Shown here one piece after another: positions 36,155 through 50,596 of a stretch of DNA of 50,596 bases. The position numbers and the translations under genes were made by a program. The notes under the pieces are model-generated. The model saw only the letters and a list, made by a program, of their open reading frames with translations. It did not search any database and was not told where the DNA came from. The first letter of the stretch is position 1. Every line of letters starts with the position of its first letter. Source of the stretch: Candidatus Binataceae bacterium. GTDB taxonomy: Bacteria > Desulfobacterota > Binatia > Binatales > Binataceae. The stretch spans positions 1 to 50,596 of the forward strand of contig JBEKLA010000002.1 in assembly GCA_050010455.1 (NCBI GenBank). The letters run 5' to 3'.

Positions 36155-37345
36155 GTGAAAAACGCGCTAATCTTCTCCGCGCCTGCGGGCGCCCAGACGC
36201 TATTCGGTCGCCCTCTGCTTGAGCGCGCTTTGACTCACTGCGAGCGAGCGGGAATCGACCGTTTCTTCGTTATTTGTCCGATTGAGCAGAGCTCGCAGCT
36301 TTCCTCGACCCTCGGACGCTTCGAGCGCGACGCGCGATTGAAAATAGTCGACTCAACAGACAATGTATTGCTTGAACCGAGCAGCTTGAAGGAGCCGTGC
36401 CTGGCGATCGGTGCCGACGTAGTCTTTGCGCGCTCTCAGATCAATATGTTGTTGCGCCATAGCGAGGCCAATCCCGGCGAAATTGCACAGATTCCGGTCA
36501 AGGATGGCGGGCCGGATTCTGTCCTGGCGGTCGGGCCGCTCGGCGAGATGCTCAAACGATCCGGAGCGTCGAAATCGCTCGCTGCGGGTCTCGATGGGAC
36601 GCTGCCGTTCGCCCTCGAAGCTAACCCCGGAGCGAACGCGCGAGCGGAAGTGGCGATGGCGCGGGTGCTGCGCTTCGAAACGGTCGAAACCGACGGCCTG
36701 ATGGCGCGTATAATGGATCGCAAAATCTCGTGGCGGCTCAGTTATCAGCTGGCGCGAACCGCGGTGACACCGAATCAAATCACGATTGCCAACACCGTCT
36801 TCGGCCTGATCGCCGCCTGGATGTTTGCCGGACACGGATACTGGCTGCCCTTGCTCGGATCGCTGTTGTTCCTGGCGTCGGTGACGATCGACGGAGTGGA
36901 CGGCGAGGTCGCGCGGCTCAAGATGGCGGAGTCGCCATTCGGCAAGCGGCTCGACGTGATCACAGACAATATCGTCAACGTCGCGGTTCTGGCCGCTATA
37001 GGAATAGGATGTTATCGACACAGTGGCAGCAAGACCTACCTTTATCTGCTGCCATTGTTCCTCGGCGGTTTCGCATCTTGCGCGGTAGCCGTCCAGCGCG
37101 CGTTGAACGTATGTGGAGCGCAAGCCGAAGGCTGGATCGGGCAAGTGGAAAGAATCTGCGGGCGCGATTTCGCCTACCTGTTGGTGGTGATGGCGGCGAT
37201 TAACCGCCTCAACTTCGTCGCCTGGGGAACCGCTTTCGGCACCTATGTTTTCGCCATCGGATTGTCGTGGATGACGAACAACCACGTGCGGTTCGCGGCC
37301 GGCGTCGCCGCGCCTGAGCGGCCCGTGGCGGCAGAGGGATTATGA
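36155..37345 (+). CDS. CDP-alcohol phosphatidyltransferase with degenerate N-terminal nucleotidyltransferase-like domain
   Basis: TPNQIT, D..DGEVARLK..ESPFGKRLD..TD signature, TM helices; N-terminus LFGRPLLERAL..C.RAGI. Confidence 0.88.
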   Translation: MKNALIFSAPAGAQTLFGRPLLERALTHCERAGIDRFFVICPIEQSSQLSSTLGRFERDARLKIVDSTDNVLLEPSSLKEPCLAIGADVVFARSQINMLLRHSEANPGEIAQIPVKDGGPDSVLAVGPLGEMLKRSGASKSLAAGLDGTLPFALEANPGANARAEVAMARVLRFETVETDGLMARIMDRKISWRLSYQLARTAVTPNQITIANTVFGLIAAWMFAGHGYWLPLLGSLLFLASVTIDGVDGEVARLKMAESPFGKRLDVITDNIVNVAVLAAIGIGCYRHSGSKTYLYLLPLFLGGFASCAVAVQRALNVCGAQAEGWIGQVERICGRDFAYLLVVMAAINRLNFVAWGTAFGTYVFAIGLSWMTNNHVRFAAGVAAPERPVAAEGL

Positions 37346-38670
37346 ATAAAAAACCGAGGATTCTCCTCGTTCAACCTACAACGGTTCATCTCGACGGCAC
37401 GCCCCATAAGACGCGATGGCGGCTGATCATGGGGCTGATGATCCCGCTGATAGCGGGACTAACCCCTGAGGATTTCGACGTTACGCTGTGCGACGAACGG
37501 CTCGAGGAGATCGACTTCGACGCCGGATGGGATCTGGTCGGCATGACCACCACGATCGGGGCGTCGCTGCGCGCCTACCAGCTCGGCGACGAATTCCGCA
37601 AACGCGGCATCCCGGTGGTGATGGGGGGCTTTCACGCCACGCTCCAGACCGACGAGGCGCTCAAGCACGCCGACGCGGTGGTGCAGGGCGAAGCCGACAC
37701 GGTGTGGGAGCCGCTGCTGCGCGATTGGCAGGACGGCAAGCTCAAGCAAATTTACAAGGCCGACAAGCTCCACGATTTGAAGAACCTGCCGCGCCCGCGC
37801 CACGAGTTGCTGAAGCTCAACCGTTACCTGTTCAAGGCGGTGCCGATTCAGGCCAGTCGCGGATGTCCCTATCGATGCTCGTTCTGCGAGATTCCGGTCT
37901 TTTACGACGGCTCGTACCGCACCCGCCCGATCGGGGATATCATTGAAGAAATCAAACAGGTGATGGAAATCACTGGCTTTCGCCGCTTCCAGTTTATCGA
38001 CGATCAGATCACCGGCAAGCACAAGTTTGCACGCGAGCTGTTCCGCGCCCTGGAGCCGCTCAACATCCGCTTCTCGTGTCTGTGGACGATCAATTCCAAT
38101 CACGACGACGAGCTGCTCGAACTGGCGGCCAAGGCCGGCGTCTTCCACGTCAATATCGGCGTGGAATCGATCAGCCAGGACAGCCTGATGTCGATGAACA
38201 AGATTCAAAATCACGCCAAGCAGTACAAGGAACTGCTCGCCAAGCTGAAGCGGTACGGAATCTACTACTCGCTCAATTTCCTGTTCGGGCTGGAGAACGA
38301 CGGTCCCACGATCTTCGACGATACGCTCAAGTTCCTGGACGAGGTCAAGGCGCCCGAGGCGTTCTTCAACACCGTCACACCGCGCCGGGGCACTCCGATG
38401 CGCCAGCAGCTCGAGGACGAGGACCGCGTCATCATTCCCGACGCCGACATGTACACCAACAACTTCCGCTGCATGTTCGTGCCCAGGAATCTCTCGCCGC
38501 AGGAGGTCGAAGAGGGCGTGTGGCGGTGCAACACCGAATTCTATTCGCTCAAGTCGATGTTCAAGCGGCTGCTGATGCCGCCCAGCAAATTCACCTGGCA
38601 GGGGCTTACCGAGAACGCGCTGTTTTACTGGGGCGCCAAGCAGCGAATCGATCCGGTCGATTATTACTGA
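37342..38670 (+). CDS. B12-binding-domain radical SAM protein
   Basis: GIPVVMGGFHAT..GEAD cobalamin-binding region, SRGCPYRCSFC CxxxCxxC, FIDD, GVES; start overlaps upstream stop. Confidence 0.92.
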   Translation: MNKKPRILLVQPTTVHLDGTPHKTRWRLIMGLMIPLIAGLTPEDFDVTLCDERLEEIDFDAGWDLVGMTTTIGASLRAYQLGDEFRKRGIPVVMGGFHATLQTDEALKHADAVVQGEADTVWEPLLRDWQDGKLKQIYKADKLHDLKNLPRPRHELLKLNRYLFKAVPIQASRGCPYRCSFCEIPVFYDGSYRTRPIGDIIEEIKQVMEITGFRRFQFIDDQITGKHKFARELFRALEPLNIRFSCLWTINSNHDDELLELAAKAGVFHVNIGVESISQDSLMSMNKIQNHAKQYKELLAKLKRYGIYYSLNFLFGLENDGPTIFDDTLKFLDEVKAPEAFFNTVTPRRGTPMRQQLEDEDRVIIPDADMYTNNFRCMFVPRNLSPQEVEEGVWRCNTEFYSLKSMFKRLLMPPSKFTWQGLTENALFYWGAKQRIDPVDYY

Positions 38671-39935: not shown

Positions 39936-40175
39936 ATGAGCGAGGCTGATCCAAATCGTATCGACGCCGAATGGGACGCGGGCGATATGGGCTGCGGAGA
40001 ACTGATCGTGGAATTGCGCAAGCGCGTCAGGGCAATCCAGCCCGGACAAGTGCTCCGTCTGATCGCGCGCGATCCGGGTGCGATCGAAGATCTGCCCGCC
40101 TGGTGCCGGATGACCGGCCATCGCATGAACCGCGCCGAGCATCCTGTATATTTCATTCAGCGCAAGGAGGATTAA
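39936..40175 (+). CDS. TusA-family sulfur carrier
   Basis: WDAGDMGCGEL, PGQVL.L...DPGA.EDLPAWCR.TGH; GAGG RBS before ATG 39936. Confidence 0.85.
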   Translation: MSEADPNRIDAEWDAGDMGCGELIVELRKRVRAIQPGQVLRLIARDPGAIEDLPAWCRMTGHRMNRAEHPVYFIQRKED

Positions 40176-40178
40176 TCC

Positions 40179-40541
40179 GTGGCAGGCAAGTTTTGCGTAT
40201 CGTTGACCTTCGCCAAGGACAACACCGACAAGGCTACAGTGGCGTTCGTAGTTGCCAACGCGGCGGTCGGCTCCGAGCAGGAAACGATCGTTTTCCTCAG
40301 CAGCGAGGGGGTGCGGCTGGGCGTCAAGGGCTATGCGGACGACATCCGTGAAGAAGGCTTCGCACCGCTGAAAGACCTGATGGCGAGTTTTGCCGATGCC
40401 GGCGGCACCATCTATGTCTGCTCGCCGTGCTTTAAGCGCCGGGGCCTCGATGAAAATAATCTGGTTGCCGGGGCGAAGATCGTGGGCGGCGCCAAGCTGG
40501 TCGAGTTTCTCGCCAGCGGCGCGGCGTGCGTCTCCTACTGA
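40179..40541 (+). CDS. DsrE/DsrF-like family protein
   Basis: DKATVAFVVANAA, FLSSEGV, GGTIYVCSPC..RGL, IVGGA; AGGAGG RBS. Confidence 0.88.
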   Translation: MAGKFCVSLTFAKDNTDKATVAFVVANAAVGSEQETIVFLSSEGVRLGVKGYADDIREEGFAPLKDLMASFADAGGTIYVCSPCFKRRGLDENNLVAGAKIVGGAKLVEFLASGAACVSY

Positions 40542-42139
40542 GTCGAGGGAGAAGACTAGTTACGACGGATTCCAAAGAACCGCGCACGCGCCATCCGTAC
40601 GCGCCCGACGCGAGCTTCGACGGCGGCGACCTCGATTGTGGCAGCGGGCTGCTGCTGCTGATCCGCAAGCATATCGATCCACTGGCGCCGGGCCAGTTGC
40701 TCGAGATTCGCTCAACCGAGTTGTCGGTGCGCGAGGATCTGCCGGCGTGGTGCCGATTAACGCGCAACGAACTGGTGTCCGAGATTCGTGACGGCCGGCT
40801 CGGCAGCTATCTGGTATCGAAGGGACCGTTCACGCCGCGCGCATCCATCGCGCGAGAACCGGATGCGGACGCGGCGAATCAGGAATCGCGCATCAGGACG
40901 CCGGCGCCCGTAACTCAGGCAATCAAGGCGGTTACGATTCCCGCCACGCTGCCCGAACCCGCAGCGGTGCCCGCGATCCGGCCGCTCTCGGTGATCGGTA
41001 TCGGCAGTTGGCCGCGCCCGCGCTGGATGCTGCAGGCGCTGCACGATTATCACGAAGGCCGGCTGAGCGAAGAGGCGTTTCAGGAGACCGCGAACGACGC
41101 GGTGCTTCTCGCGATCGATGCGCAGCTTCGCGCCGGCGTGGACGTCATCACCGACGGTGAGCAGCGGCGCGACAGCTACGCCAGCTTCGTCGGCGGCATA
41201 CTCGACAACTGTCAGCTCATCCCGGTAACCGACCTGCTTCCCTACGTTGATCATCCCGACGAGTTCGAAGAACAGTTGCGCGCGCTCGACGTCCCCGCCG
41301 GCAAGGTGCTGCATCCCGCCGTCTTCGGCCCGCTCGGACGCAGCCGCCCGCTCGCGGTGCACGAATTGGAGTTCGCGCGCGGAATTTCGAGCCTGCCGGT
41401 GAAGGTTGCGCTGCCGGGACCGTACCTGCTGACGCGCACGATGTGGATGGAGTGCATTTCGGACCGCGCCTACGCTCGCCGCGAGGATCTGGCGGAAGAC
41501 ATTGTGCGCGTGCTGCGCGAGGAGCTGCATTACCTGCTTGCGGCCGGCGCGGCGATCGTGCAATTCGACGAGCCGGTGCTGACTGAAGTAGTGTTCGGCA
41601 AGCCGCCTGGCCAACGCACGTTCATGTGCGGCGCGCTGGGCGCGCGGATGGATACCGCCGCGGAGCTGGCGTTCGCGGAAGCGCTCATCAACCGCGTCGT
41701 CGACGGCCTCCCGCGCGATCGGATCGCGCTGCATATCTGTCGCGGCAACTGGAGCCCGGACGAACGCGTCGCGCTGGCGGGTGATTATCGGCCGCTGATA
41801 CCTCTTCTGTCGCGGGTCAAGGTCGGCACGCTGTTTCTCGAACTGAGTACGCCGCGCGCGGGCGAGGCGAGCGTGCTTCGCGACCTTCCCGCCGATCGTC
41901 GGATAGGCGTCGGCGTCGTTAACCAGAAATCCGCGCGCGTCGAGACGGTGGAGGAGATTGTCGCCGCGACCGAGCGCGCAATCGCTATCTTCGGAGCAGA
42001 ACGATTATTGCTCACCCCGGATTGCGGCTTCGCGACCTTTGCCGACAATCCGATCGCGTCGTCCGATATCGCCGAGAAGAAACTTGCCGCGATCGTTCAG
42101 GCCGCGCATGTCCTGCGGCGCAAGTACAATCTCGACTGA
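40526..42139 (+). CDS. Fusion of a TusA-like domain and a single-barrel cobalamin-independent methionine synthase (MetE C-terminal-like) domain
   Basis: FDGGDLDCGSG..EDLPAWCR, then IGSWPRP, VITDGEQRR, QFDEP, HICRGN, LELS, PDCGF (Zn ligands H/C/E/C); start uncertain. Confidence 0.85.
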   Translation: MRLLLSRGRRLVTTDSKEPRTRHPYAPDASFDGGDLDCGSGLLLLIRKHIDPLAPGQLLEIRSTELSVREDLPAWCRLTRNELVSEIRDGRLGSYLVSKGPFTPRASIAREPDADAANQESRIRTPAPVTQAIKAVTIPATLPEPAAVPAIRPLSVIGIGSWPRPRWMLQALHDYHEGRLSEEAFQETANDAVLLAIDAQLRAGVDVITDGEQRRDSYASFVGGILDNCQLIPVTDLLPYVDHPDEFEEQLRALDVPAGKVLHPAVFGPLGRSRPLAVHELEFARGISSLPVKVALPGPYLLTRTMWMECISDRAYARREDLAEDIVRVLREELHYLLAAGAAIVQFDEPVLTEVVFGKPPGQRTFMCGALGARMDTAAELAFAEALINRVVDGLPRDRIALHICRGNWSPDERVALAGDYRPLIPLLSRVKVGTLFLELSTPRAGEASVLRDLPADRRIGVGVVNQKSARVETVEEIVAATERAIAIFGAERLLLTPDCGFATFADNPIASSDIAEKKLAAIVQAAHVLRRKYNLD

Positions 42140-42150
42140 CAAAATACTGA

Positions 42151-42172
42151 ATAGCCAGATCGATCTGGCTAT
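42151..42172. terminator. Perfect 22-bp palindrome between convergent genes
   Basis: ATAGCCAGATCGATCTGGCTAT, overlapping the stop of the dehalogenase gene. Confidence 0.5.
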
Positions 42173-43428
42173 GGTTTGGCTGCCATCCATGCGCGGATAC
42201 GAGTAGCTACTTCTTCGCCGGCGTCCTCCTGGATGAAATGACCGGCGCCGCTGATCGTGAGCGGCGGTGCGACGTTGCGAAACAAGGCCCGCATCGCAGG
42301 CTCACCCTTGCCCAGCACCGGGTCGGCGTCGCCCCACGGCAGCAACACAGGAAGGTCGAGGCTTTTCAACTTTTCGATCGCGGCGCGATTCTCGTACGCG
42401 CCGGGATGATCCGGCCTGATCGGTACCAGGCGCGGAAACACCAGCGCGGCGGTCTGATACTCGGCTGAAGGAAACGGCGCGTTGTATGCGGCCGCCTCGG
42501 CGTCGCTGAGTGTGCGCTTGCGCAGCGTCACGCGCACGATCGCGCCGGCATCGAGTTGCTTCTGGCGCAGCGCGAAACGACGCCATCGTACGAATCCCTC
42601 GCCAAGGCTGCGGCCGTCGGGCATGCCCGTATTGATCGCCACGAGCCGCGCGAACCGCTCCGGTATCGAGGCCATCGCGCGCATCCCGAGCAACCCGCCC
42701 CAGTCCTGACACACGAGCACTATGCGGCGGAGGTCAAGCGTTTCGATGAAGCGCCGCAGCCATCGCGCGTGCGAGCGATAGCTGTAAGCGTTGCGCGACA
42801 CCGGCTTGTCCGAGCGGCCAAACCCGATTAGGTCGGGCACGATCACGCGTCCCACTTCGGCGAGGGGCGGAATCATCCGCCGATACAGATATCCCCACGT
42901 TGGCTCGCCATGCAGCATCAGGATCGGATCCCCCTGGCCGCTGGTTACGTAAGCCATGCGCAATCCTTCGACGTCGACGTACTTGGGCTCGTATGGGAAA
43001 TCGGGAAGATTGTTGAAGCGCTCCTCGGAAGTACGCAGCACCGATCCTTCGGGCCAGGCGGGCTTGAGGCCCGCATAGCTAAGGACCTTGGTGAGATGGG
43101 CCGCGCCGAGAGTGTCAGATATCTCAGAAATCCACAGGCAGAAGTCAGTCAGGTCGGCGTCGATTTCGTGCTCCGGCGGACGCGGTTCGTACCGATCCCA
43201 CATGCCGTAGACCATCGCCATTGAAGGCCGTCCGCGACCCAAGTCCGCGAGTTCGAGGGCGTAAAGATGGTCATGGGCCGAGCGCCAATAGACGCGGCCT
43301 GCGCGTTTCCCCACGGCTCGTTCGATCGATTCCGCGACCTGTGGCCGCACATCCAATTCCTGCTCCCACAGCAGCGGGTCCGCTCGCAAATAGGACATCT
43401 CTTCGACGGCAGGCGTGACGAATTTCAT
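42169..43428 (-). CDS. Haloalkane dehalogenase family protein with ~125-aa N-terminal extension
   Basis: VLRT.EERF.NLPDFPY, HGEPTWGYLYR, PDLIGFGRSDKP, QDWGG (Asp nucleophile), GHFIQED. Confidence 0.88.
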   Translation of the reverse strand: MKFVTPAVEEMSYLRADPLLWEQELDVRPQVAESIERAVGKRAGRVYWRSAHDHLYALELADLGRGRPSMAMVYGMWDRYEPRPPEHEIDADLTDFCLWISEISDTLGAAHLTKVLSYAGLKPAWPEGSVLRTSEERFNNLPDFPYEPKYVDVEGLRMAYVTSGQGDPILMLHGEPTWGYLYRRMIPPLAEVGRVIVPDLIGFGRSDKPVSRNAYSYRSHARWLRRFIETLDLRRIVLVCQDWGGLLGMRAMASIPERFARLVAINTGMPDGRSLGEGFVRWRRFALRQKQLDAGAIVRVTLRKRTLSDAEAAAYNAPFPSAEYQTAALVFPRLVPIRPDHPGAYENRAAIEKLKSLDLPVLLPWGDADPVLGKGEPAMRALFRNVAPPLTISGAGHFIQEDAGEEVATRIRAWMAAKP

Positions 43429-44342
43429 AGCGCTGCTCCCACGGTACGATCGAGGAACTCGATAATCGGCCTCACCAAATCAGGGCCGCGATCATCCTGG
43501 AGAAAGTGTGCGGCTCGGTCGAACAAGATCGGTCCCTCGGCGTGCGGCAGCAATTCCTTGAGCCGATTTGCGTAGTCGATCGGAAAGACGTTGTCTTCGG
43601 GCGCCCACAGCAAAAGAGTCGGCACCTTCGCCAATTCCGGGAGCCGGCGCTGAATCATCTGCATGTCGGCCCATCCGCGATCGCCCTCGCGCAGCGGTAT
43701 AGTCCGCGGCCAGGTCAGCACCACATGATCGGAATCGGGCTCGTCGTATATATGATGATACGCGCGTTTTTCCTCCTCACTCATGCCGCGGCGCGTGATC
43801 GCGGAAACGCCCGCATGCGAGAGCACTTTGTAACGTTTCATCAGCAGTTGACCGATAAGCGGCGCGTGCCATGTGGTCCATGGCAGCGGCGACTGATGAA
43901 ACTTTCCGACATAGTCGGTAAATAGCCACGTGTTCATCAGCACCATCGCGTCGAATCCTTCGATCCGCTGCAGCGCGGCACCGACTCCCTGCGGTCCGCC
44001 CCAGTCCTGACCAACGATTACGTAGCCACACAAACATAGTTGATCGATCAGCGACACCAAGTCCGCGATATGATGGGCAAGCGAAAAGGCTGCGTCTATC
44101 CGCGGATGGTCCGAGTATCCGGACCCGATCCAATCCGGCACAATCACGCGGTAACCCGCGTCAATCAGAGGGCGGATGAAGTCGCGGTAAAGGAAGCCCC
44201 AGGTAGGATTTCCATGCAGCAAGAGGACGGGGCGCGTGTCGCGAGCGCCTTCGTCGATGTAGGCCATCGAGCGGCCGTTGACGCGTAGCGTTTTTTGTTC
44301 CCAGGGAAACAGTCGCTTTAGCCAAGCCGGCTTTTCAAGCAT
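43425..44342 (-). CDS. Haloalkane dehalogenase-like alpha/beta hydrolase
   Basis: HGNPTWGFLYR, PDWIGSGYSD, QDWGGP, HFLQDD; start at ATG 44342. Confidence 0.85.
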   Translation of the reverse strand: MLEKPAWLKRLFPWEQKTLRVNGRSMAYIDEGARDTRPVLLLHGNPTWGFLYRDFIRPLIDAGYRVIVPDWIGSGYSDHPRIDAAFSLAHHIADLVSLIDQLCLCGYVIVGQDWGGPQGVGAALQRIEGFDAMVLMNTWLFTDYVGKFHQSPLPWTTWHAPLIGQLLMKRYKVLSHAGVSAITRRGMSEEEKRAYHHIYDEPDSDHVVLTWPRTIPLREGDRGWADMQMIQRRLPELAKVPTLLLWAPEDNVFPIDYANRLKELLPHAEGPILFDRAAHFLQDDRGPDLVRPIIEFLDRTVGAAL

Positions 44343-44418
44343 GACAAACCTCGCAAGCGAGCGTTGGGCCGTTAGCGCACCCGGATTGAAACGTCTGGCT
44401 AACAGCCGGTCCTGGGCA

Positions 44419-45294
44419 TTAGTCACTCCATAAATGGGGAAAGGTGCGCATCCGGCTGAAGCCCGAGCCGCTATAGTCGACGCCCATAGCATGAGGGTCG
44501 GCGATAACAGCGTATTCTTTAAGAATCTGCTGGCTATAGCAGACTCGTCCCGTGACGCGGTCGAGCGGTTCGGTGGCCAGGATCAGCACCGCTTGAGCCA
44601 TATAGTCCGCTGGCTCTCCCTGAGGCTTGTCGCCGCCCACGAGTTTATGAAAAACAGTTCCGGGTGTGGCTACAACGTCTGATGGCGAGATGCAGGTGAC
44701 GGAGATTCCATTCTGATAGACTTCATCGGCCAGGCCCTGAGTGAATCTTTCGAGGGCGGCTTTGGCAGCTCCGTAACAGGTCCAAGGTAGGCCGAACGGA
44801 CTGCGATGGCGGTAGGGGCCGCGGCCCGGGCCGACGGCGGCGCCGGAGCTGATATTGACGATCGCGCCGGAGCGTTTGGAAAGCATGTCCTCGAGCACCA
44901 TCTTGCTCAGCATAAAGGGGCCGTGCACGTTGACGGCGAAGGAACGTATCCAGCGCTTGATCGTAAGGTCGCGCACGGGGATCGGGTAGGAGAGGACCGC
45001 GTTGTTAACGAGCACGTCGCAGGGGCCATAATGCTCACGCGTCGTTGCCACCAAACGTTCGCAGTCCTGCTCTGAAGATACGTCGCACGGGACCGCGAGC
45101 GCCTGCGCGCCCTGGCTTGTTATTTCGGAAACCGTGGTTTCGAGCGAGCCCTCAAGTTGATGCTCTCCCTCGCGCATCGTGCGCGCCGTGCAGACTACCT
45201 TGGCGCCCTCGCCGGCAAACAGTTTCGCGATCGCCTTGCCGATACCGCGGCTGGCTCCGGTTACGATAGCTACCTTACCGTCAAGTTTCCCCAT
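44419..45294 (-). CDS. SDR family oxidoreductase
   Basis: TGASRGIG, VNNA, NISS, YGAAKAALERFT. Confidence 0.9.
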   Translation of the reverse strand: MGKLDGKVAIVTGASRGIGKAIAKLFAGEGAKVVCTARTMREGEHQLEGSLETTVSEITSQGAQALAVPCDVSSEQDCERLVATTREHYGPCDVLVNNAVLSYPIPVRDLTIKRWIRSFAVNVHGPFMLSKMVLEDMLSKRSGAIVNISSGAAVGPGRGPYRHRSPFGLPWTCYGAAKAALERFTQGLADEVYQNGISVTCISPSDVVATPGTVFHKLVGGDKPQGEPADYMAQAVLILATEPLDRVTGRVCYSQQILKEYAVIADPHAMGVDYSGSGFSRMRTFPHLWSD

Positions 45295-45482: not shown

Positions 45483-45577
45483 GGCGGAGGGGGGAAGGAG
45501 TCGAACCTTCCGGCGAGCGCAATACCCGCCAGGCCGGTTTTGAAGACCGGTGGGGCCACCGGGCCCCTTCCTCCTCC
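45483..45577 (-). tRNA. selC: tRNA-Sec (anticodon UCA)
   Basis: Minus strand GGAGGAGGAAGGGGCCCGGTGGCCCCACCGGTCTTCAAAACCGG...GGTTCGACTCC..CTCCGCC: 8-bp acceptor, 6-bp D stem with 4-nt loop, TCA anticodon, long variable arm, G discriminator; CCA not fully encoded. Confidence 0.93.
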
Positions 45578-47150: not shown

Positions 47151-48374
47151 TCAGGCGATCGCAGCGCTTAGCTCTTCTGTTCGGCGAGAGCCGTTCGAGC
47201 CAAGGACAACCTCAGCCAGCCGGTCGGCCACGTCGCTCTCTGTGTGCTTGAGGAAGTGGGAGTAAACCTGCAGGGTGATCGCCGGATTGGCGTGACCCAA
47301 GCGATGCTGGACTTCCGTGACCGGTGCCCCAGCCGCGATCATGGCTGAGGCACAACTATGACGCAACGTGTGGAAGGTCACGCGCCGCAACCGCGCCCGT
47401 GAAAGGGCCGGGTAGAAGCTGACCCGCAGCAGCCAGTCCCGGCATATGGGTTTCCCTTCGGACGACGAGAAGACAAGGTCCTCCTCGGACTTCGGGCACT
47501 GCAGTTTCCAGCGCTTCAGATCGGCAACCAGCGGCGCAGCAATCGATATCGTGCGGCGGCCTGCCTTGGTCTTGGGCGGGAAGTAACGCGGGCGAGTTTC
47601 TTCCCCCTTAAGCCGCGCCCACGAGAGGCTGCGGCGGATCGTTATCTTGCCCGGCCCCTCCTTGGGCAGTTCAAGATCGCTCCAGCGCAAGGCGAGTAGC
47701 TCTCCCTCGCGCGCTCCGGTCAAATAGGCGGCCTCGAACAGCACTCGCTCGAACCCCGGTTGAGCCGCCCGCAACAACAACTGAATCTCGGCCGGGCTCA
47801 GCACGTTGTCGGGGTCAACCGTGTCGTTGCTGGCATCAGCGGCATCTTCGCCCGCCTTTAGTTCTTTCGCGACCTGTACCGCGCGCTCCACGCTGTCCAC
47901 AGGATTCTTCGCGCACTGGCCGCGTTTGATCCCGAGCTTAAAGACCGCACCCATGATCCTCAGGATGGTGTTGATGGTGCGGTGCGCATAGCCGCGATCA
48001 CGCAGATCGTCTCGCAGCTTCTCGACCTCGGCTAGCCTGATCGTGTCCAGGCGCCTCGTGCCGAAGAGGGGAATCAGGTGCTTGTCGAGACGTGTGCGGA
48101 GATCTGAGACGTGAGAAGGGCGGCGATCAGTCTTGCTCCGAAACCAGTCCTCGGCGACCTCCGCGAAGGTCGGCACCTTGGCCGGTTCGACGTACTCGCC
48201 GCGCGCGGCCTGGAGCGCCGTTTCCGCGAGGAATCGCTCGGCGGCCTTTTTAGTCTTGAAACGCACTCGCCGCCGCGGGCCGTACATGCCCAGCGGGCGA
48301 TAGTCCAGCGCCCACAGGCAATCGCAATCGCCACCATTGCAATTGGGCAGGTGAAATTTCTTAATGCTTGCCAT
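47151..48374 (-). CDS. int: Tyrosine recombinase / phage-type integrase
   Basis: Catalytic set LTGAREGEL (R), PKTK (K), FHTLRHS (HxxR), LGH, VYSH (Y); N-terminal arm-binding-like region. Confidence 0.95.
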   Translation of the reverse strand: MASIKKFHLPNCNGGDCDCLWALDYRPLGMYGPRRRVRFKTKKAAERFLAETALQAARGEYVEPAKVPTFAEVAEDWFRSKTDRRPSHVSDLRTRLDKHLIPLFGTRRLDTIRLAEVEKLRDDLRDRGYAHRTINTILRIMGAVFKLGIKRGQCAKNPVDSVERAVQVAKELKAGEDAADASNDTVDPDNVLSPAEIQLLLRAAQPGFERVLFEAAYLTGAREGELLALRWSDLELPKEGPGKITIRRSLSWARLKGEETRPRYFPPKTKAGRRTISIAAPLVADLKRWKLQCPKSEEDLVFSSSEGKPICRDWLLRVSFYPALSRARLRRVTFHTLRHSCASAMIAAGAPVTEVQHRLGHANPAITLQVYSHFLKHTESDVADRLAEVVLGSNGSRRTEELSAAIA

Positions 48375-48386
48375 CGGACATCCCCA

Positions 48387-48707
48387 TCATCGTGCTTCCT
48401 GGTGCGTTCGCTCGCTCAAGGCCCGCTCGACATCGCTCAGCCGGAACCGGATATATCTGCCGAGCCTGAAGCTCGGAATTTTGCGCGCGCGCCCCTCGGC
48501 CCGCACCCAGCTTTCTGGAACCTTAAGGCGCCCGGCGAGCTCGCTCGCTGTGAGCAGATTGTCAGCGCTGGACGCGCTCTCGCCATTGCGACAGGTGCCG
48601 CTCTCGCCCAGAAGCCGAGCAGTCAGGAATGCCAGAACAGCAGGAATCTGATCGACCGGGATGCGCCTGGCCCACTCCACCACCGCCACGTCCATCCTCT
48701 CCTGCAT
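48387..48707 (-). CDS. Excisionase-like helix-turn-helix DNA-binding protein
   Basis: LLTASELAGRLKVPESWV....RARKIPSFRLGRYIRF; immediately upstream of int; start at ATG 48707. Confidence 0.82.
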   Translation of the reverse strand: MQERMDVAVVEWARRIPVDQIPAVLAFLTARLLGESGTCRNGESASSADNLLTASELAGRLKVPESWVRAEGRARKIPSFRLGRYIRFRLSDVERALSERTHQEAR

Positions 48708-48721
48708 CCCCGTGTCCTGCG

Positions 48722-49343
48722 TCAGCCTTCGATCAGTCTCGGTTCCAGACTGAGGTCCGCGAGCCGTTGTAGTGCTACCGCCGCATATCCGGGATCGATC
48801 TCGCAACCGAAACCGACGCGGCCAAGTTGCTGCGCGGCGACCAGCGTTGTTCCCGATCCAGCGAACGGGTCGTAAACGACGTCGCCGACGCAACTGCTGT
48901 TGCGGATCATTCGCGCGACGAGTTCAACCGGCTTGGTGGTCGGATGCAGGTCGCTAAGGTGCGGCTTGTCGACCTCGAAAACCGAGTCCTGGGTGCGTTC
49001 GTCGGTGAAGTAGTGCGCGCCGTTATCTAGCCAACCGTATAAAATCGGCTCGTGCCTGTAGTGGTAGTCCGAGCGGCCGATCACGAACTGCTGCTTCACC
49101 CAGACCAGCCCCGCGCGATACGAAAAACCGCCTTGCTCGAATGCCTCGATGAAGCCCCGCAGCAAAGGGCCGCCGGGCACTGTCGCGTAACACGACGCGC
49201 CGGGCCGCGCATGCCCCGCCGCGGTGCGGAGCGCACTCGCGAACAGCGCAAAAACCTCTTTGGCGCTGAGATGGTCGTTCTCGATCGGCTTCTGAACGCG
49301 ATTCCCGCGATCGCCGGCGTTCAAGAACTCGTTCTTGTCGGCG
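48722..49343 (-). pseudogene. Phage-type N6/N4 DNA methyltransferase, C-terminal part, interrupted by IS21
   Basis: IENDHL, DYHYRHEPILYGW, HPTTKPVEL, YDPFAGSGTT, EIDP.Y; DPPY motif absent because the sequence switches to the IS end at 49344. Confidence 0.85.
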
Positions 49344-50596
49344 TGAGAGCGCCAGAGAGAAAATCCCTCACAGAAGCAGCCGGATAGGCCGGTTGCAGCG
49401 GAGTAAAAATCCGGCAGCAATGGCCCATTTGCCGAGGAGCGGCAAAGGTGGGCGGAGGGATGAAACGGGTGGAACTATACGCGCAGGTACGACGAGCGGT
49501 TTACGTAGAGGGAATCAGTCAGCGGGGTTATGGAATCGACCCGCGGACGGTGGCGAAGATGCTGGCGTTCTCTGTGCCGCCTGGTTATCGACGGAGCCGG
49601 CCGCCGGCGCGGCCCAAGCTGGATCCGTTTGTCGGGATCATCGACCAGATCTTAGAAGAAGATAAGTCCCAGCCGGCCAAGCAGCAGCACACGGCGAAAC
49701 GGATTTTCGAGCGGCTGCGCGATGAGCATGGGTACAACGGTGGGGTCTCGATCGTAAGGGGCTACGTGCACGAGCACCGCCAGCGGCTGCGCGAGATGTT
49801 CGTGCCGTTGCGTCACGATCCTGGACACGCGCAAGTCGACTTCGGCGAAGCGCTCGCAGTGATCGCAGGCGAGGAGTGCAAGATCCACTTTTTTGCGATG
49901 GATCTGCCGCACAGCGATGCATGTTTGGTGCAGGCCTATCCGGCGGAGAGCAGCGAAGCCTTCTGCGAAGGGCACAACGTGAGCTTCGAGTTCTTCGGCG
50001 GAGTGCCGCGATCGATCCTCTACGATAACCTCAAGCTGGCGGTGGCGCGCATTCTCGGGGATGGCACCCGCCGGCGCACGCGAATCTTCAGTGAACTGCA
50101 GTCCTACTATCTGTTCGCCGACCGCTTCGGGCGGCCGGGCAAAGGCAACGATAAGGGCAAGGTCGAGGGGTTGGTCGGCTACGCGCGGCGCAACTTCATG
50201 GTTCCCATCCCGCGCGCGGCCAGCTTCGCTGAGCTCAATGCGCAGTTACTGGAGTGCTGCCGTCGGCGCCTGAATGATCGGCTGCGTGGTCATGACGAGA
50301 CCATCGGCGAGCGGTTGGCGCGGGACCGTGAAGCCTTACTGCCGCTACCACCTGCTCCCTATGAGGCCTGCGAAAAGAAGCCCGCGCGGGTCAGCTCGTT
50401 GTCGCTGGTGCGCTATCGCGGCAACGACTATTCGGTGCCGACCGCATACGGGCATCGCGAGGTCCTGGTCCGCGGTTACGTCCACGAAGTGGTGATCGCC
50501 TGCGCCGGCGAGGAGATCGCCCGGCACGCGCGTTCCTACGCGCACGAGGACTTCGTGTTCAACCCATTGCATTACCTGGCCCTGCTGGAACGCAAG
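49344..50596 (+). mobile_element. IS21-family insertion sequence (left end; runs off window)
   Basis: Begins TG(AGAGCGCCAGAGAGAAAATCC) with a related internal repeat (GCAGCGGAGTAAAAATCC near 49396), followed by istA. Confidence 0.88.
49460..50596 (+). CDS. istA: IS21 transposase IstA (3' truncated by window edge; absent from ORF track)
   Basis: GGAGG RBS; MKRVELYAQVRRAV.., KQQHTAKRIFERLRDEHGY, FVPL.H.PG.AQVDFG, ILYDNLK, DKGKVEG, HYLALLERK; start and window end are in the same frame. Confidence 0.93.
   Translation, partial: MKRVELYAQVRRAVYVEGISQRGYGIDPRTVAKMLAFSVPPGYRRSRPPARPKLDPFVGIIDQILEEDKSQPAKQQHTAKRIFERLRDEHGYNGGVSIVRGYVHEHRQRLREMFVPLRHDPGHAQVDFGEALAVIAGEECKIHFFAMDLPHSDACLVQAYPAESSEAFCEGHNVSFEFFGGVPRSILYDNLKLAVARILGDGTRRRTRIFSELQSYYLFADRFGRPGKGNDKGKVEGLVGYARRNFMVPIPRAASFAELNAQLLECCRRRLNDRLRGHDETIGERLARDREALLPLPPAPYEACEKKPARVSSLSLVRYRGNDYSVPTAYGHREVLVRGYVHEVVIACAGEEIARHARSYAHEDFVFNPLHYLALLERK

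Follow-up and report, generated by a model that had tools for sequence, protein, structure and literature searches.

Several described systems bear on the locus considered here. MesD (PDB 3RPD) is a folate- and B12-independent core methionine synthase whose activity requires oxygen as well as MesX (DUF1852); the source of its methyl group is unknown and its requirement for a partner unexplained (Price et al., 2021; PMC7857596). YedF joins a TusA-like part (CPxP) to a DsrE-like part (CGxC) and hardly ever occurs without SelD; a role in selenium transport has been suggested for YedE (Lin et al., 2015; PMC5322559). Selenium-starved Methanococcus maripaludis induces TusA and TusD along with Sdm methyltransferases which demethylate dimethylselenide (PMC11097638). 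The present analysis concerns a 50,596-nt stretch of DNA from Candidatus Binataceae bacterium (assembly GCA_050010455.1, contig JBEKLA010000002.1, positions 1–50,596; hereafter the window), in which three consecutive genes encode a free TusA, a DsrE-family protein and a fusion of a TusA-like domain to a MetE-type barrel. The component families are known, and their combination, the changes in their motifs and their linkage to selD are new. It is tentatively proposed that the three genes form one machine, a sulfur/selenium carrier relay working with a MesD-type zinc homocysteine methyltransferase barrel, in which the carriers would hold selenium preferentially.

The likeness to MesD is the closest. 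Both proteins have a single MetE-type barrel without the folate barrel, agree in their zinc ligands and Ser/Glu/Asp triad and carry an insertion behind HxC, both have a partner system which involves neither folate nor B12, and the hosts of both often possess MetH (PMC7857596). Unlike MesD, the fusion is accompanied by TusA, DsrE and its own TusA domain rather than by MesX/DUF1852, and it has three extra conserved cysteines and a link to selD. With YedF (FdhU) and YedE (FdhT), the module shares the joint occurrence of TusA- and DsrE-type domains, a CxxC motif in DsrE, strong co-occurrence with SelD and an accompanying membrane or uptake component lined with cysteines (Lin et al., 2015; PMC5322559). 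It differs in that its TusA and DsrE are separate genes with CG.. and CSPC in place of CPxP and CGxC, and in the attached MetE-like barrel. The TusA–TusBCD and DsrEFH persulfide relays of tRNA 2-thiolation and sulfur oxidation employ the same two families in a cascade of single-cysteine carriers. In contrast to these, no DsrF/DsrH or TusE partners are apparent at the module loci and most have no desulfurase, CPxP is replaced, and the putative acceptor is an alkyltransferase barrel instead of a thiolase or reductase. Epoxyalkane:coenzyme M transferase, also of the MetE family, resembles the fusion in that a zinc-activated thiol attacks an electrophilic carbon which does not come from methyl-folate, but it uses coenzyme M as the thiol and has no carrier domains. 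Finally, SdmABC of Methanococcus can be likened to the module as a methyltransferase system which mobilises selenium from methylated selenides under limitation and is induced with TusA and TusD, but it is archaeal, anaerobic and corrinoid-dependent, with methyltransferases of the URO-D type and coenzyme M as acceptor (PMC11097638).

Conservation of the gene set and of its active sites

Of 8000 candidates scored in a word-indexed search, 7143 database proteins reached E ≤ 1e-3. The best 120 of them are 470–545 aa long and 65–98% identical, and a hand count of their precomputed annotation found both PF01717 and PF01206 in at least 94 of them. When one genome per species was scanned, 656 related loci were confirmed, and 80 of them were kept for neighbourhood and conservation counts. 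These loci span Binatia, Burkholderiales (Duganella, Massilia, Burkholderia, Paraburkholderia, Bordetella), Xanthobacteraceae, Nitrospirillum, Amaricoccus and Planctomycetota as well as Actinomycetota (Yaniella, Enemella, Nocardioides), Acidobacteriota, Methylomirabilota/Rokubacteria and Chloroflexota. The family is nonetheless sparse, being present in 6 of 251 evenly drawn Burkholderiales, in 2 of 81 Micrococcaceae and in 1 of 401 Pseudomonadota, the last being the centre genome itself; a search of a plasmid collection found the module in three Paracoccus replicons only. Of the 80 kept loci, 75 have a DsrE homologue near the fusion and 64 have, besides the fused domain, a separate free TusA; these genes stand immediately upstream or some 2.5 kb upstream. 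The ten other Binatia-type loci have DsrE and no free TusA within their flanks; the window has both. Recurrence of this gene set in hundreds of genomes puts the arrangement far beyond what chance would produce. Across lineages, the 80 loci revealed no conserved neighbour beyond TusA, DsrE and two alternative inserts between dsrE and the fusion gene.

In the window, GAGG precedes the tusA1 ATG by 7 nt, the GTG start of dsrE follows tusA1 after a 3-nt gap with an AAGGAGG site upstream, and the fusion, with GTG 40526 as its sole canonical in-frame start, shares its first 16 nt with the end of dsrE. From these signals, the three genes are predicted to be translationally coupled. A scan for promoters and terminators around the module produced matches no more numerous than in shuffled sequence, and an Rfam search for an upstream riboswitch or other RNA found only the selenocysteine tRNA (tRNA-Sec) in the window and nothing at seven other loci.

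Both carriers belong to known families. The free TusA passes the Pfam cut-off for PF01206. The fused domain matches the Pfam model weakly (E 3.7e-5, 23.9 bits, under the cut-off), and it is assigned to the same family by its match to the Escherichia coli TusA/YhhP structures in a sequence search of the PDB (E 1.8e-5) and by its predicted secondary structure, the AlphaFold2 model having a beta-alpha-beta-alpha-beta-beta element at residues 29–98 that fits TusA. The carrier cysteine of the family, at the start of helix 1, is represented by Cys20 and Cys38, but the CPxP motif is found in neither; the free TusA has CG(E/D)L instead, the fused domain CG(N/S)G. In the free TusA, Cys20 lies within WDAGDMGCGEL and Cys57 within DLPAWC, and homologues at the 64 loci keep CG[ED]L, preceded by WDAG-x-x-x, and P(A/S)(W/Y)C, the three exceptions being broken or masked copies (L037, L054, L066). 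The corresponding cysteines of the fusion are Cys38 in FDGGDLDCG(N/S)G and Cys76 in EDLPAWCR. The 59.8-bit match of DsrE and its conserved active-site cysteines place it in the DsrE/TusD family (PF02635); its CxxC motif reads VCSPC, with Cys81 and Cys84 kept in all of 55 homologues.

In an alignment of 50 fusions, 47–83% identical to the window protein, all seven cysteines are conserved and the TusA domain is among the best-conserved parts. Cys38, Cys76, Cys229 (DNCQLIP) and the zinc ligand Cys405 are invariant; at least 90% of the sequences retain Cys310 (WMECISD), Cys368 (FMCGAL) and Cys500 (PDCG), another zinc ligand. Cys229, Cys310 and Cys368 are extra, family-specific barrel cysteines; Cys229 and Cys310 are missing from four unfused relatives (34–45% identity) and therefore go with the TusA fusion. 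The linker between the domains varies in length and sequence. In the AlphaFold2 model of the fusion (mean pLDDT 84.2, pTM 0.73), residues 1–18 and 107–122 are disordered, with pLDDT below 50 at 107–122, and a semi-conserved motif, PAPITQPI..V.IP..LP.PAP, follows after about residue 122.

The barrel aligns residue by residue to Thermotoga maritima MetE and, best, to PDB 3RPD (E 6.7e-25), which is also the best structural match of the model in Foldseek, with a TM-score of 0.79 on the target. Identity to 3RPD is about 22–30%, and 22–23% over the Foldseek structural alignment. Canonical MetE has two barrels of the (beta-alpha)8 type in tandem, and its N-terminal one (Meth_synt_1) contributes to the binding of methyl-folate. 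This N-terminal barrel is absent from the fusion, as the only trace of it is a 40-residue Meth_synt_1 match below the cut-off (26.3 bits); canonical MetE (TIGR01371) scores 80 bits on the fusion against a cut-off of 930, and none of the NCBIfam models reaches its cut-off, the best giving 169 bits against 406. The zinc ligands His403, Cys405, Glu439 and Cys500 align with the motifs of the T. maritima enzyme and are kept in at least 90–100% of the 50 sequences. Ser161, Glu212 and Asp348 are invariant and correspond to Ser22, Glu73 and Asp188 of 3RPD, residues for which homocysteine-binding roles are described in core methionine synthases (PMC7857596). The fusion thus has the Ser, Glu (or Gln) and Asp residues of the core enzymes MesA-D, and because this triad is kept, the thiol bound at the zinc is most likely homocysteine rather than a carrier cysteine. 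A complex prediction of the barrel (residues 150–537, with zinc) against the TusA domain (22–104) scored 0.00 and is no argument in either direction.

The fusion was also compared with MesD as defined by Price et al. (2021), who recognise the enzyme by about 55% identity or more and by adjacency to MesX/DUF1852 (PMC7857596). It was rejected as a MesD on its low identity and because no MesX-like conserved neighbour appears in the 80 loci, where DUF1852 was not searched for explicitly. The core-synthase survey limited its candidates to about 400 aa or fewer and names neither TusA nor DsrE. Literature searches on MesX/DUF1852 found nothing new since 2021.

An earlier note, made from the window sequence alone, had described the three genes and their motifs. 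Its three coupled genes are indeed plus-strand open reading frames whose ribosome-binding sites and overlap support coupling, and every motif it named (DMGCGEL, DLDCGSG, DLPAWC, CSPC, HIC..E..PDCG) occurs in the window proteins: two TusA domains with CG instead of CPxP, each with a second cysteine (Cys20/Cys57 and Cys38/Cys76), a DsrE whose CSPC cysteines are fully conserved, and a MetE-type barrel which has an intact zinc site and falls below the cut-offs for the N-terminal barrel and for canonical MetE. Two of the findings that it had named as speaking against its idea were a fusion unique to this assembly and cysteines that are not conserved. The search for TusA+Meth_synt_2 fusions which it suggested disposes of the former, with 656 loci across phyla, and the fusion, free TusA and DsrE alignments dispose of the latter. 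The note knew of no characterised TusA-MetE fusion, and literature searches with TusA, DsrE and methionine synthase/MetE terms likewise found no paper on this architecture. A Phaeocystis "MetE-fusion" (PMC10861871) was ruled out as the same architecture, since it has AT/PKS/PP-binding and CzcO domains.

Linkage to selD and the methionine synthases of carrier genomes

One new result is the linkage of the module to selD, called here where TIGR00476 exceeded the NCBIfam cut-off. By this measure, selD is present in 57 of 61 fusion-bearing genomes: the window's own (1/1), the named fusion genomes (5/5), further carriers (48/50), new Burkholderiales carriers (2/4) and an extra Micrococcaceae carrier, G1268 (1/1). 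Among the four misses, G585 has a 69-residue selD fragment, G038 has selA and its selD was, given that gene, probably not assembled, and G025 and G553 have only paralogues. Genomes flagged as unpublished are included in these tallies (carriers G010, G020 and G034; Burkholderiales G477 and G640) and in the Actinomycetes sample used for comparison (G687, G695, G704, G710, G712, G716 and G723). In evenly drawn genomes, selD occurs in 61 of 201 Actinomycetes, 40 of 201 Alphaproteobacteria and 21 of 81 Micrococcaceae. In the two low-background groups, Actinomycetota and Alphaproteobacteria, all 16 to 17 carriers are selD-positive (8 of 8 and 8–9 of 8–9). A naive product over roughly six plus three independent lineages, not phylogenetically corrected, amounts to about 5e-6.

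The association extends beyond any one use of selenium. selA is present in 48 of 56 fusion carriers, and six of the eight carriers without selA have SelU; Yaniella, Xanthobacter and the window's genome have selA and no SelU. As the module thus occurs both in users of selenocysteine (Sec) and in SelU-only genomes, its link is to SelD and not to one selenium trait. The window's genome (G000, contigs C409 (L082) and C71) has a selD with one in-frame TGA which adjoins a selB-like gene, with selA on another contig; from its sequence, this SelD is likely itself a selenoprotein.

At some loci the selenium genes lie close by. selD is found within 6 kb of the fusion in two related Burkholderiales metagenome-assembled genomes (MAGs; L026, L028) and in a Planctomycetota locus (L047), where dsrE, the fusion, a gene for a 169-aa exported protein and selD follow one another on one strand. 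In L067 a selB is found close to the module. In Paracoccus ferrooxidans a divergent cysteine desulfurase gene is followed by tusA, dsrE, one of the two inserts (type B, below), the fusion, selA and trxB, and this selA is genuine (Pfam SelA, E 1e-151). In the window, the gene for tRNA-Sec lies 3.3 kb downstream of the module. Altogether, a selenium gene stands within about 6 kb in about five lineages of the 82 loci, Paracoccus and the window included, where by a rough estimate well under one such lineage would be expected by chance.

The inventory of methionine synthases yields a further new result, the status of the fusion as sole candidate synthase in Yaniella. An S-methyl_trans (MetH-type) domain is present in 47 of 51 fusion genomes, mostly in open reading frames of about 1200–1300 aa, and among five genomes tested directly MetH was found in four and MetE in two. 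Searches of Yaniella flava and a Yaniella MAG (G002, G052) detected neither MetH nor MetE, nor an S-methyl_trans domain or MTHFR; both genomes have metX and metY, with a Cys_Met_Meta_PP gene next to metX, and the fusion is their sole Meth_synt_2 protein. A 9.1-Mb Planctomycetota MAG has the same absences, which carry less weight as the genome is a MAG. MesD was recognised from this kind of sole-synthase pattern (PMC7857596). The pattern suggests that the barrel can work as a methionine synthase which does not draw on methyl-folate. In Xanthobacter tagetidis (G047), a MetH-type open reading frame is present and no match to MTHFR (PF02219) was found.

Inserts, sister family and surroundings of the window

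Two alternative inserts occur between dsrE and the fusion gene at other loci (Table 1). Type A is an ABC importer of the PhnCDE class with a substrate-binding protein (SBP) in 21 and a permease in 23 of the 80 loci (L012, L015, L053, L037 and others); its permease and ATPase score above the cut-offs for PhnE and PhnC. The SBP shares about 52% identity (E 1.4e-82) with HtxB, the hypophosphite-binding protein of Pseudomonas stutzeri, for which specificity residues have been described (Bisson et al., 2017; PMC5700983). The operon SBPs retain Trp52 and the Arg178–Asp206 pair of HtxB, and Ser and His, which bind the third oxygen in PtxB (PMC5700983), replace Asn128 and Phe158. This PtxB/HtxB-hybrid pattern is present in 20–21 of the 21 copies. 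A "hybrid" SBP class is mentioned in the same source without a ligand, and on the strength of five residues the operon SBP would belong to it. Such a site would suit a small XO3 anion, with selenite, sulfite and phosphite as candidates.

Type B, found in nine loci plus Paracoccus (L064, L069, L080, L071, L073, L049, L058, L035 and L066; L081), consists of a membrane protein of about 175 aa and an exported protein of about 520 aa. The smaller protein has a conserved CxxC in a predicted helix (SALCxxCLAP) and an ECGF motif. The larger, anchored at its C terminus, has no Pfam or NCBIfam match, and a sequence search of the PDB gave nothing below E 0.28. Its AlphaFold2 model (530 aa, six sequences) has a mean pLDDT of 39.5, and its Atlas feature matches of 0.83–0.87 to S-layer clusters are a lead only. 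In the window's genome, which is 93.8% complete, tblastn detected neither the hybrid SBP nor the type B proteins nor an OsmC-like neighbour.

The nearest unfused relatives of the barrel (P0132 type, 45% identity) come from Chloroflexota, Acidobacteriota and Thaumarchaeota. None of 80 loci of this sister family (L092–L171) has TusA or DsrE near the gene; an OsmC-like gene is present at 76, mostly 16–300 nt downstream, and a two-domain rhodanese adjoins at 25. We know of no description of such a pairing of core-MetE-like and OsmC-like proteins. Thus, this branch of core MetE-like proteins has repeatedly recruited small thiol or persulfide proteins, which speaks for a functional and against an accidental coupling. 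Two low-GC Pseudomonadota (L090, L091) have a different group, in the order of an ACAD-like flavoprotein, a Phosphonate-bd-like protein, a MetE-like protein (38% identity) and an OsmC-like protein; the Phosphonate-bd-like protein is signal-less and cytoplasmic, and a Cys/Met PLP enzyme adjoins.

Around the module in the window, a B12-binding radical SAM gene upstream is overlapped by the gene for a CDP-alcohol phosphatidyltransferase, whose N-terminal part has a weak nucleotidyltransferase match; the two may form a lipid or polar head-group modification pair. From downstream, two genes for alpha/beta-hydrolases of the Abhydrolase_1 type and one for an SDR converge on the module; they are not kept beside it at other loci. 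The tRNA-Sec gene is followed by genes for a phage-type integrase, an HTH protein, a DNA methylase and a Mu-type transposase fragment up to the end of the window, and the stretch from the integrase onwards looks like a mobile element integrated at tRNA-Sec. A search of sequencing runs showed that the module DNA of the window recurs in many peat metagenomes. Three contigs of 160–259 nt from RNA libraries (metatranscriptomes) of three studies, at least 99% alike, fall within positions 39938–40387 and cover tusA1, the tusA1-dsrE junction and dsrE, which is too little for a claim of transcription.

Table 1. Coordinates of the module, of other features of the window and of gene groups at other loci.
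Feature	Sequence	Position	Strand	Basis or remark
Free TusA (TusA1), 79 aa	window	39936..40175	+	Pfam TusA E 2.2e-11, 43.9 bits vs cut-off 28.6
DsrE-family protein, 120 aa	window	40179..40541	+	Pfam DsrE E 3.6e-16, 59.8 bits
TusA::core-MetE (MesD-like) fusion, open reading frame, 537 aa	window	40526..42139	+	Stop codon included; Meth_synt_2 E 3.4e-31
TusA-like domain of fusion, residues 26–100	window	40601..40825	+	Cys38/Cys76 invariant; pLDDT 86–96; PDB TusA match
Variable Pro/Ala-rich linker of fusion, residues 101–150	window	40826..40975	+	Low pLDDT; varies in alignment
Single (beta-alpha)8 barrel of fusion, MetE/MesD type, residues 151–537	window	40976..42136	+	Foldseek, alignment, conservation
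CDP-alcohol phosphatidyltransferase and radical SAM genes	window	36155..38670	+	4-nt overlap
Two Abhydrolase_1-type genes and SDR	window	42169..45294	-	
tRNA-Sec	window	45483..45577	-	
Phage-type integrase	window	47151..48374		
Apparent mobile element	window	47151..50596		
Type A insert (example)	L012	3480..5964		
Type B insert	L064	3788..5939		
Type B insert	L081	6859..8943		
ACAD-like to OsmC-like gene group	L090	5765..9392		
ACAD-like to OsmC-like gene group	L091	5676..9303		

Proposed function and its alternatives

The module occurs almost only in selenium-using bacteria, and the best explanation of the selD association is that it belongs to the selenium-utilisation gene set. The earlier note had added selenide merely as an aside to a sulfur relay, and this aside gains real support from the co-occurrence and neighbourhood of selD. 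The cargo of the cysteines and the group transferred are what we infer. In the proposed machine, the relay would consist of the free TusA, the CxxC-bearing DsrE and the TusA domain tethered to the barrel by its flexible linker. The carrier cysteines would capture sulfur or, preferentially, selenium as Cys-S-Se-X, and the tethered TusA domain would swing Cys38-S-Se(S)-CH3 over the barrel, where zinc-activated homocysteine would accept the methyl group to give methionine and Cys-S-Se(-). The perselenide might then be methylated again, the chalcogen serving as a catalytic carrier, or it might pass via DsrE and free TusA towards SelD, so that selenium would be salvaged. In other genomes the module would come with uptake genes of its own, either the type A importer, possibly for selenite, or the type B pair.

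A bolder form of this proposal is distinctly less probable, and we regard it as a long shot: a selenium-dependent, B12- and folate-independent methionine synthase in which a perselenide on Cys38 (Cys-S-Se-) would be the catalytic methyl shuttle and play the part of cob(I)alamin in MetH. Free TusA and the CxxC DsrE would then install and repair a selenium cofactor which is not genetically encoded, using SelD-derived or imported selenium. Such a shuttle would explain the homocysteine site, the sole-synthase status in Yaniella, the linkage to selD regardless of Sec or selenouridine (SeU) and the uptake genes within the operon.

A number of observations weigh against a selenium relay. The selD background is high in evenly drawn Burkholderiales (192/251) and Planctomycetota (113/151), which makes both groups uninformative, and in two fusion-bearing Burkholderiales genomes no intact selD was found; the co-occurrence signal thus rests on few lineages. 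Most loci have no selenium gene nearby, and the tRNA-Sec of the window adjoins an integrase and may be a mere integration site. The YedF model (TIGR03527) is not among the NCBIfam matches of TusA1 or DsrE at E ≤ 0.01, and none of the free-TusA genes at the 64 loci has an in-frame TGA at its cysteine positions, so that no Sec form of the carrier is seen. As most hosts have a MetH-type domain, the module is dispensable for methionine in them, and in Yaniella a trace selenium compound as methyl donor could not support bulk methionine synthesis. To our knowledge, there is no enzymatic precedent for methyl transfer from a methyl selenenyl-sulfide or disulfide.

Part of this evidence can be read in terms of sulfur alone, as the earlier note did. 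TusA and DsrE would then carry persulfide, and the barrel would either alkylate it (giving, for example, methyl persulfide or methanethiol) or methylate homocysteine from a methyl disulfide on the carrier, formed out of methanethiol or dimethyl disulfide, the selD association being a by-product of shared ecology or lineage. Both families are established sulfur carriers (10.1101/2023.12.18.572138), the sister family pairs with rhodanese, a cysteine desulfurase stands divergently beside the module in Paracoccus and Amaricoccus, and the high selD background of Burkholderiales and Planctomycetota is as expected here. This reading is nevertheless considered unlikely, since every carrier in the two low-background groups has selD, selD, selA or selB is adjacent in several lineages, and the kept triad argues for homocysteine, not a carrier persulfide, at the zinc. 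Nor do we think it probable, to a similar degree, that the fusion is a fifth kind of folate- and B12-independent methionine synthase whose donor is unrelated to the carriers, these providing only dithiol or redox maintenance for a barrel rich in cysteines and sensitive to oxidation, or a MesX-like activation. The MesD-like fold and residues, the absence of MTHFR and of any other candidate synthase in Yaniella and in one Planctomycetota MAG, the CxxC of DsrE, which is typical of redox proteins, and the peroxiredoxin-type OsmC-like neighbours of the sister family agree with it, and MesD itself needs an unexplained partner (PMC7857596). It leaves the selD link and the operon-internal uptake genes unexplained, however; the TusA fold is not a known disulfide reductase, and most hosts already have MetH and some MetE.

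The annotation of the relatives as 5-methyltetrahydropteroyltriglutamate--homocysteine methyltransferase would fit a paralogue of ordinary methionine synthases whose TusA domain is decorative or vestigial, with tusA and dsrE acting elsewhere, for example in tRNA thiolation or Moco synthesis. This is very improbable given the missing folate-binding barrel, the strong conservation of the TusA domain and the persistence of the three genes together across phyla. The earlier note had set an ordinary methionine synthase acting without TusA and DsrE against its own idea; of this, the synthase role is a live possibility, Yaniella having no other candidate, but not one without TusA and DsrE. We give hardly any credence to a reduced-phosphorus system, in which the operon importer would transport phosphite or hypophosphite and the module would help to use such compounds. 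The similarity of the SBP to HtxB and the PhnE and PhnC matches favour it, but no PtxD, HtxA or C-P lyase is among the conserved neighbours in the 80 loci, only about a quarter of these loci have the importer, which the window's genome lacks, its specificity residues are a PtxB/HtxB hybrid of unknown ligand, and nothing ties the chemistry of TusA, DsrE or MetE to phosphorus.

The fusion family is common in soil, peat and rhizosphere bacteria, and some of the genera that have it can be cultured and manipulated genetically (Duganella, Massilia, Xanthobacter, Paracoccus). Its members are at present annotated as ordinary MetE, and metabolic reconstructions may therefore misread the family when they deal with B12 dependence, methionine prototrophy or selenium use. 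The conservative outcome would be a fifth partner system for a core methionine synthase, which would extend the MesA-D scheme. If the selenium relay is true, both the way in which bacteria traffic selenium to SelD and alkyl transfer involving carrier-bound persulfides or perselenides become testable, and a perselenide shuttle would be a new selenium-utilisation trait as well as a new way of moving methyl groups.

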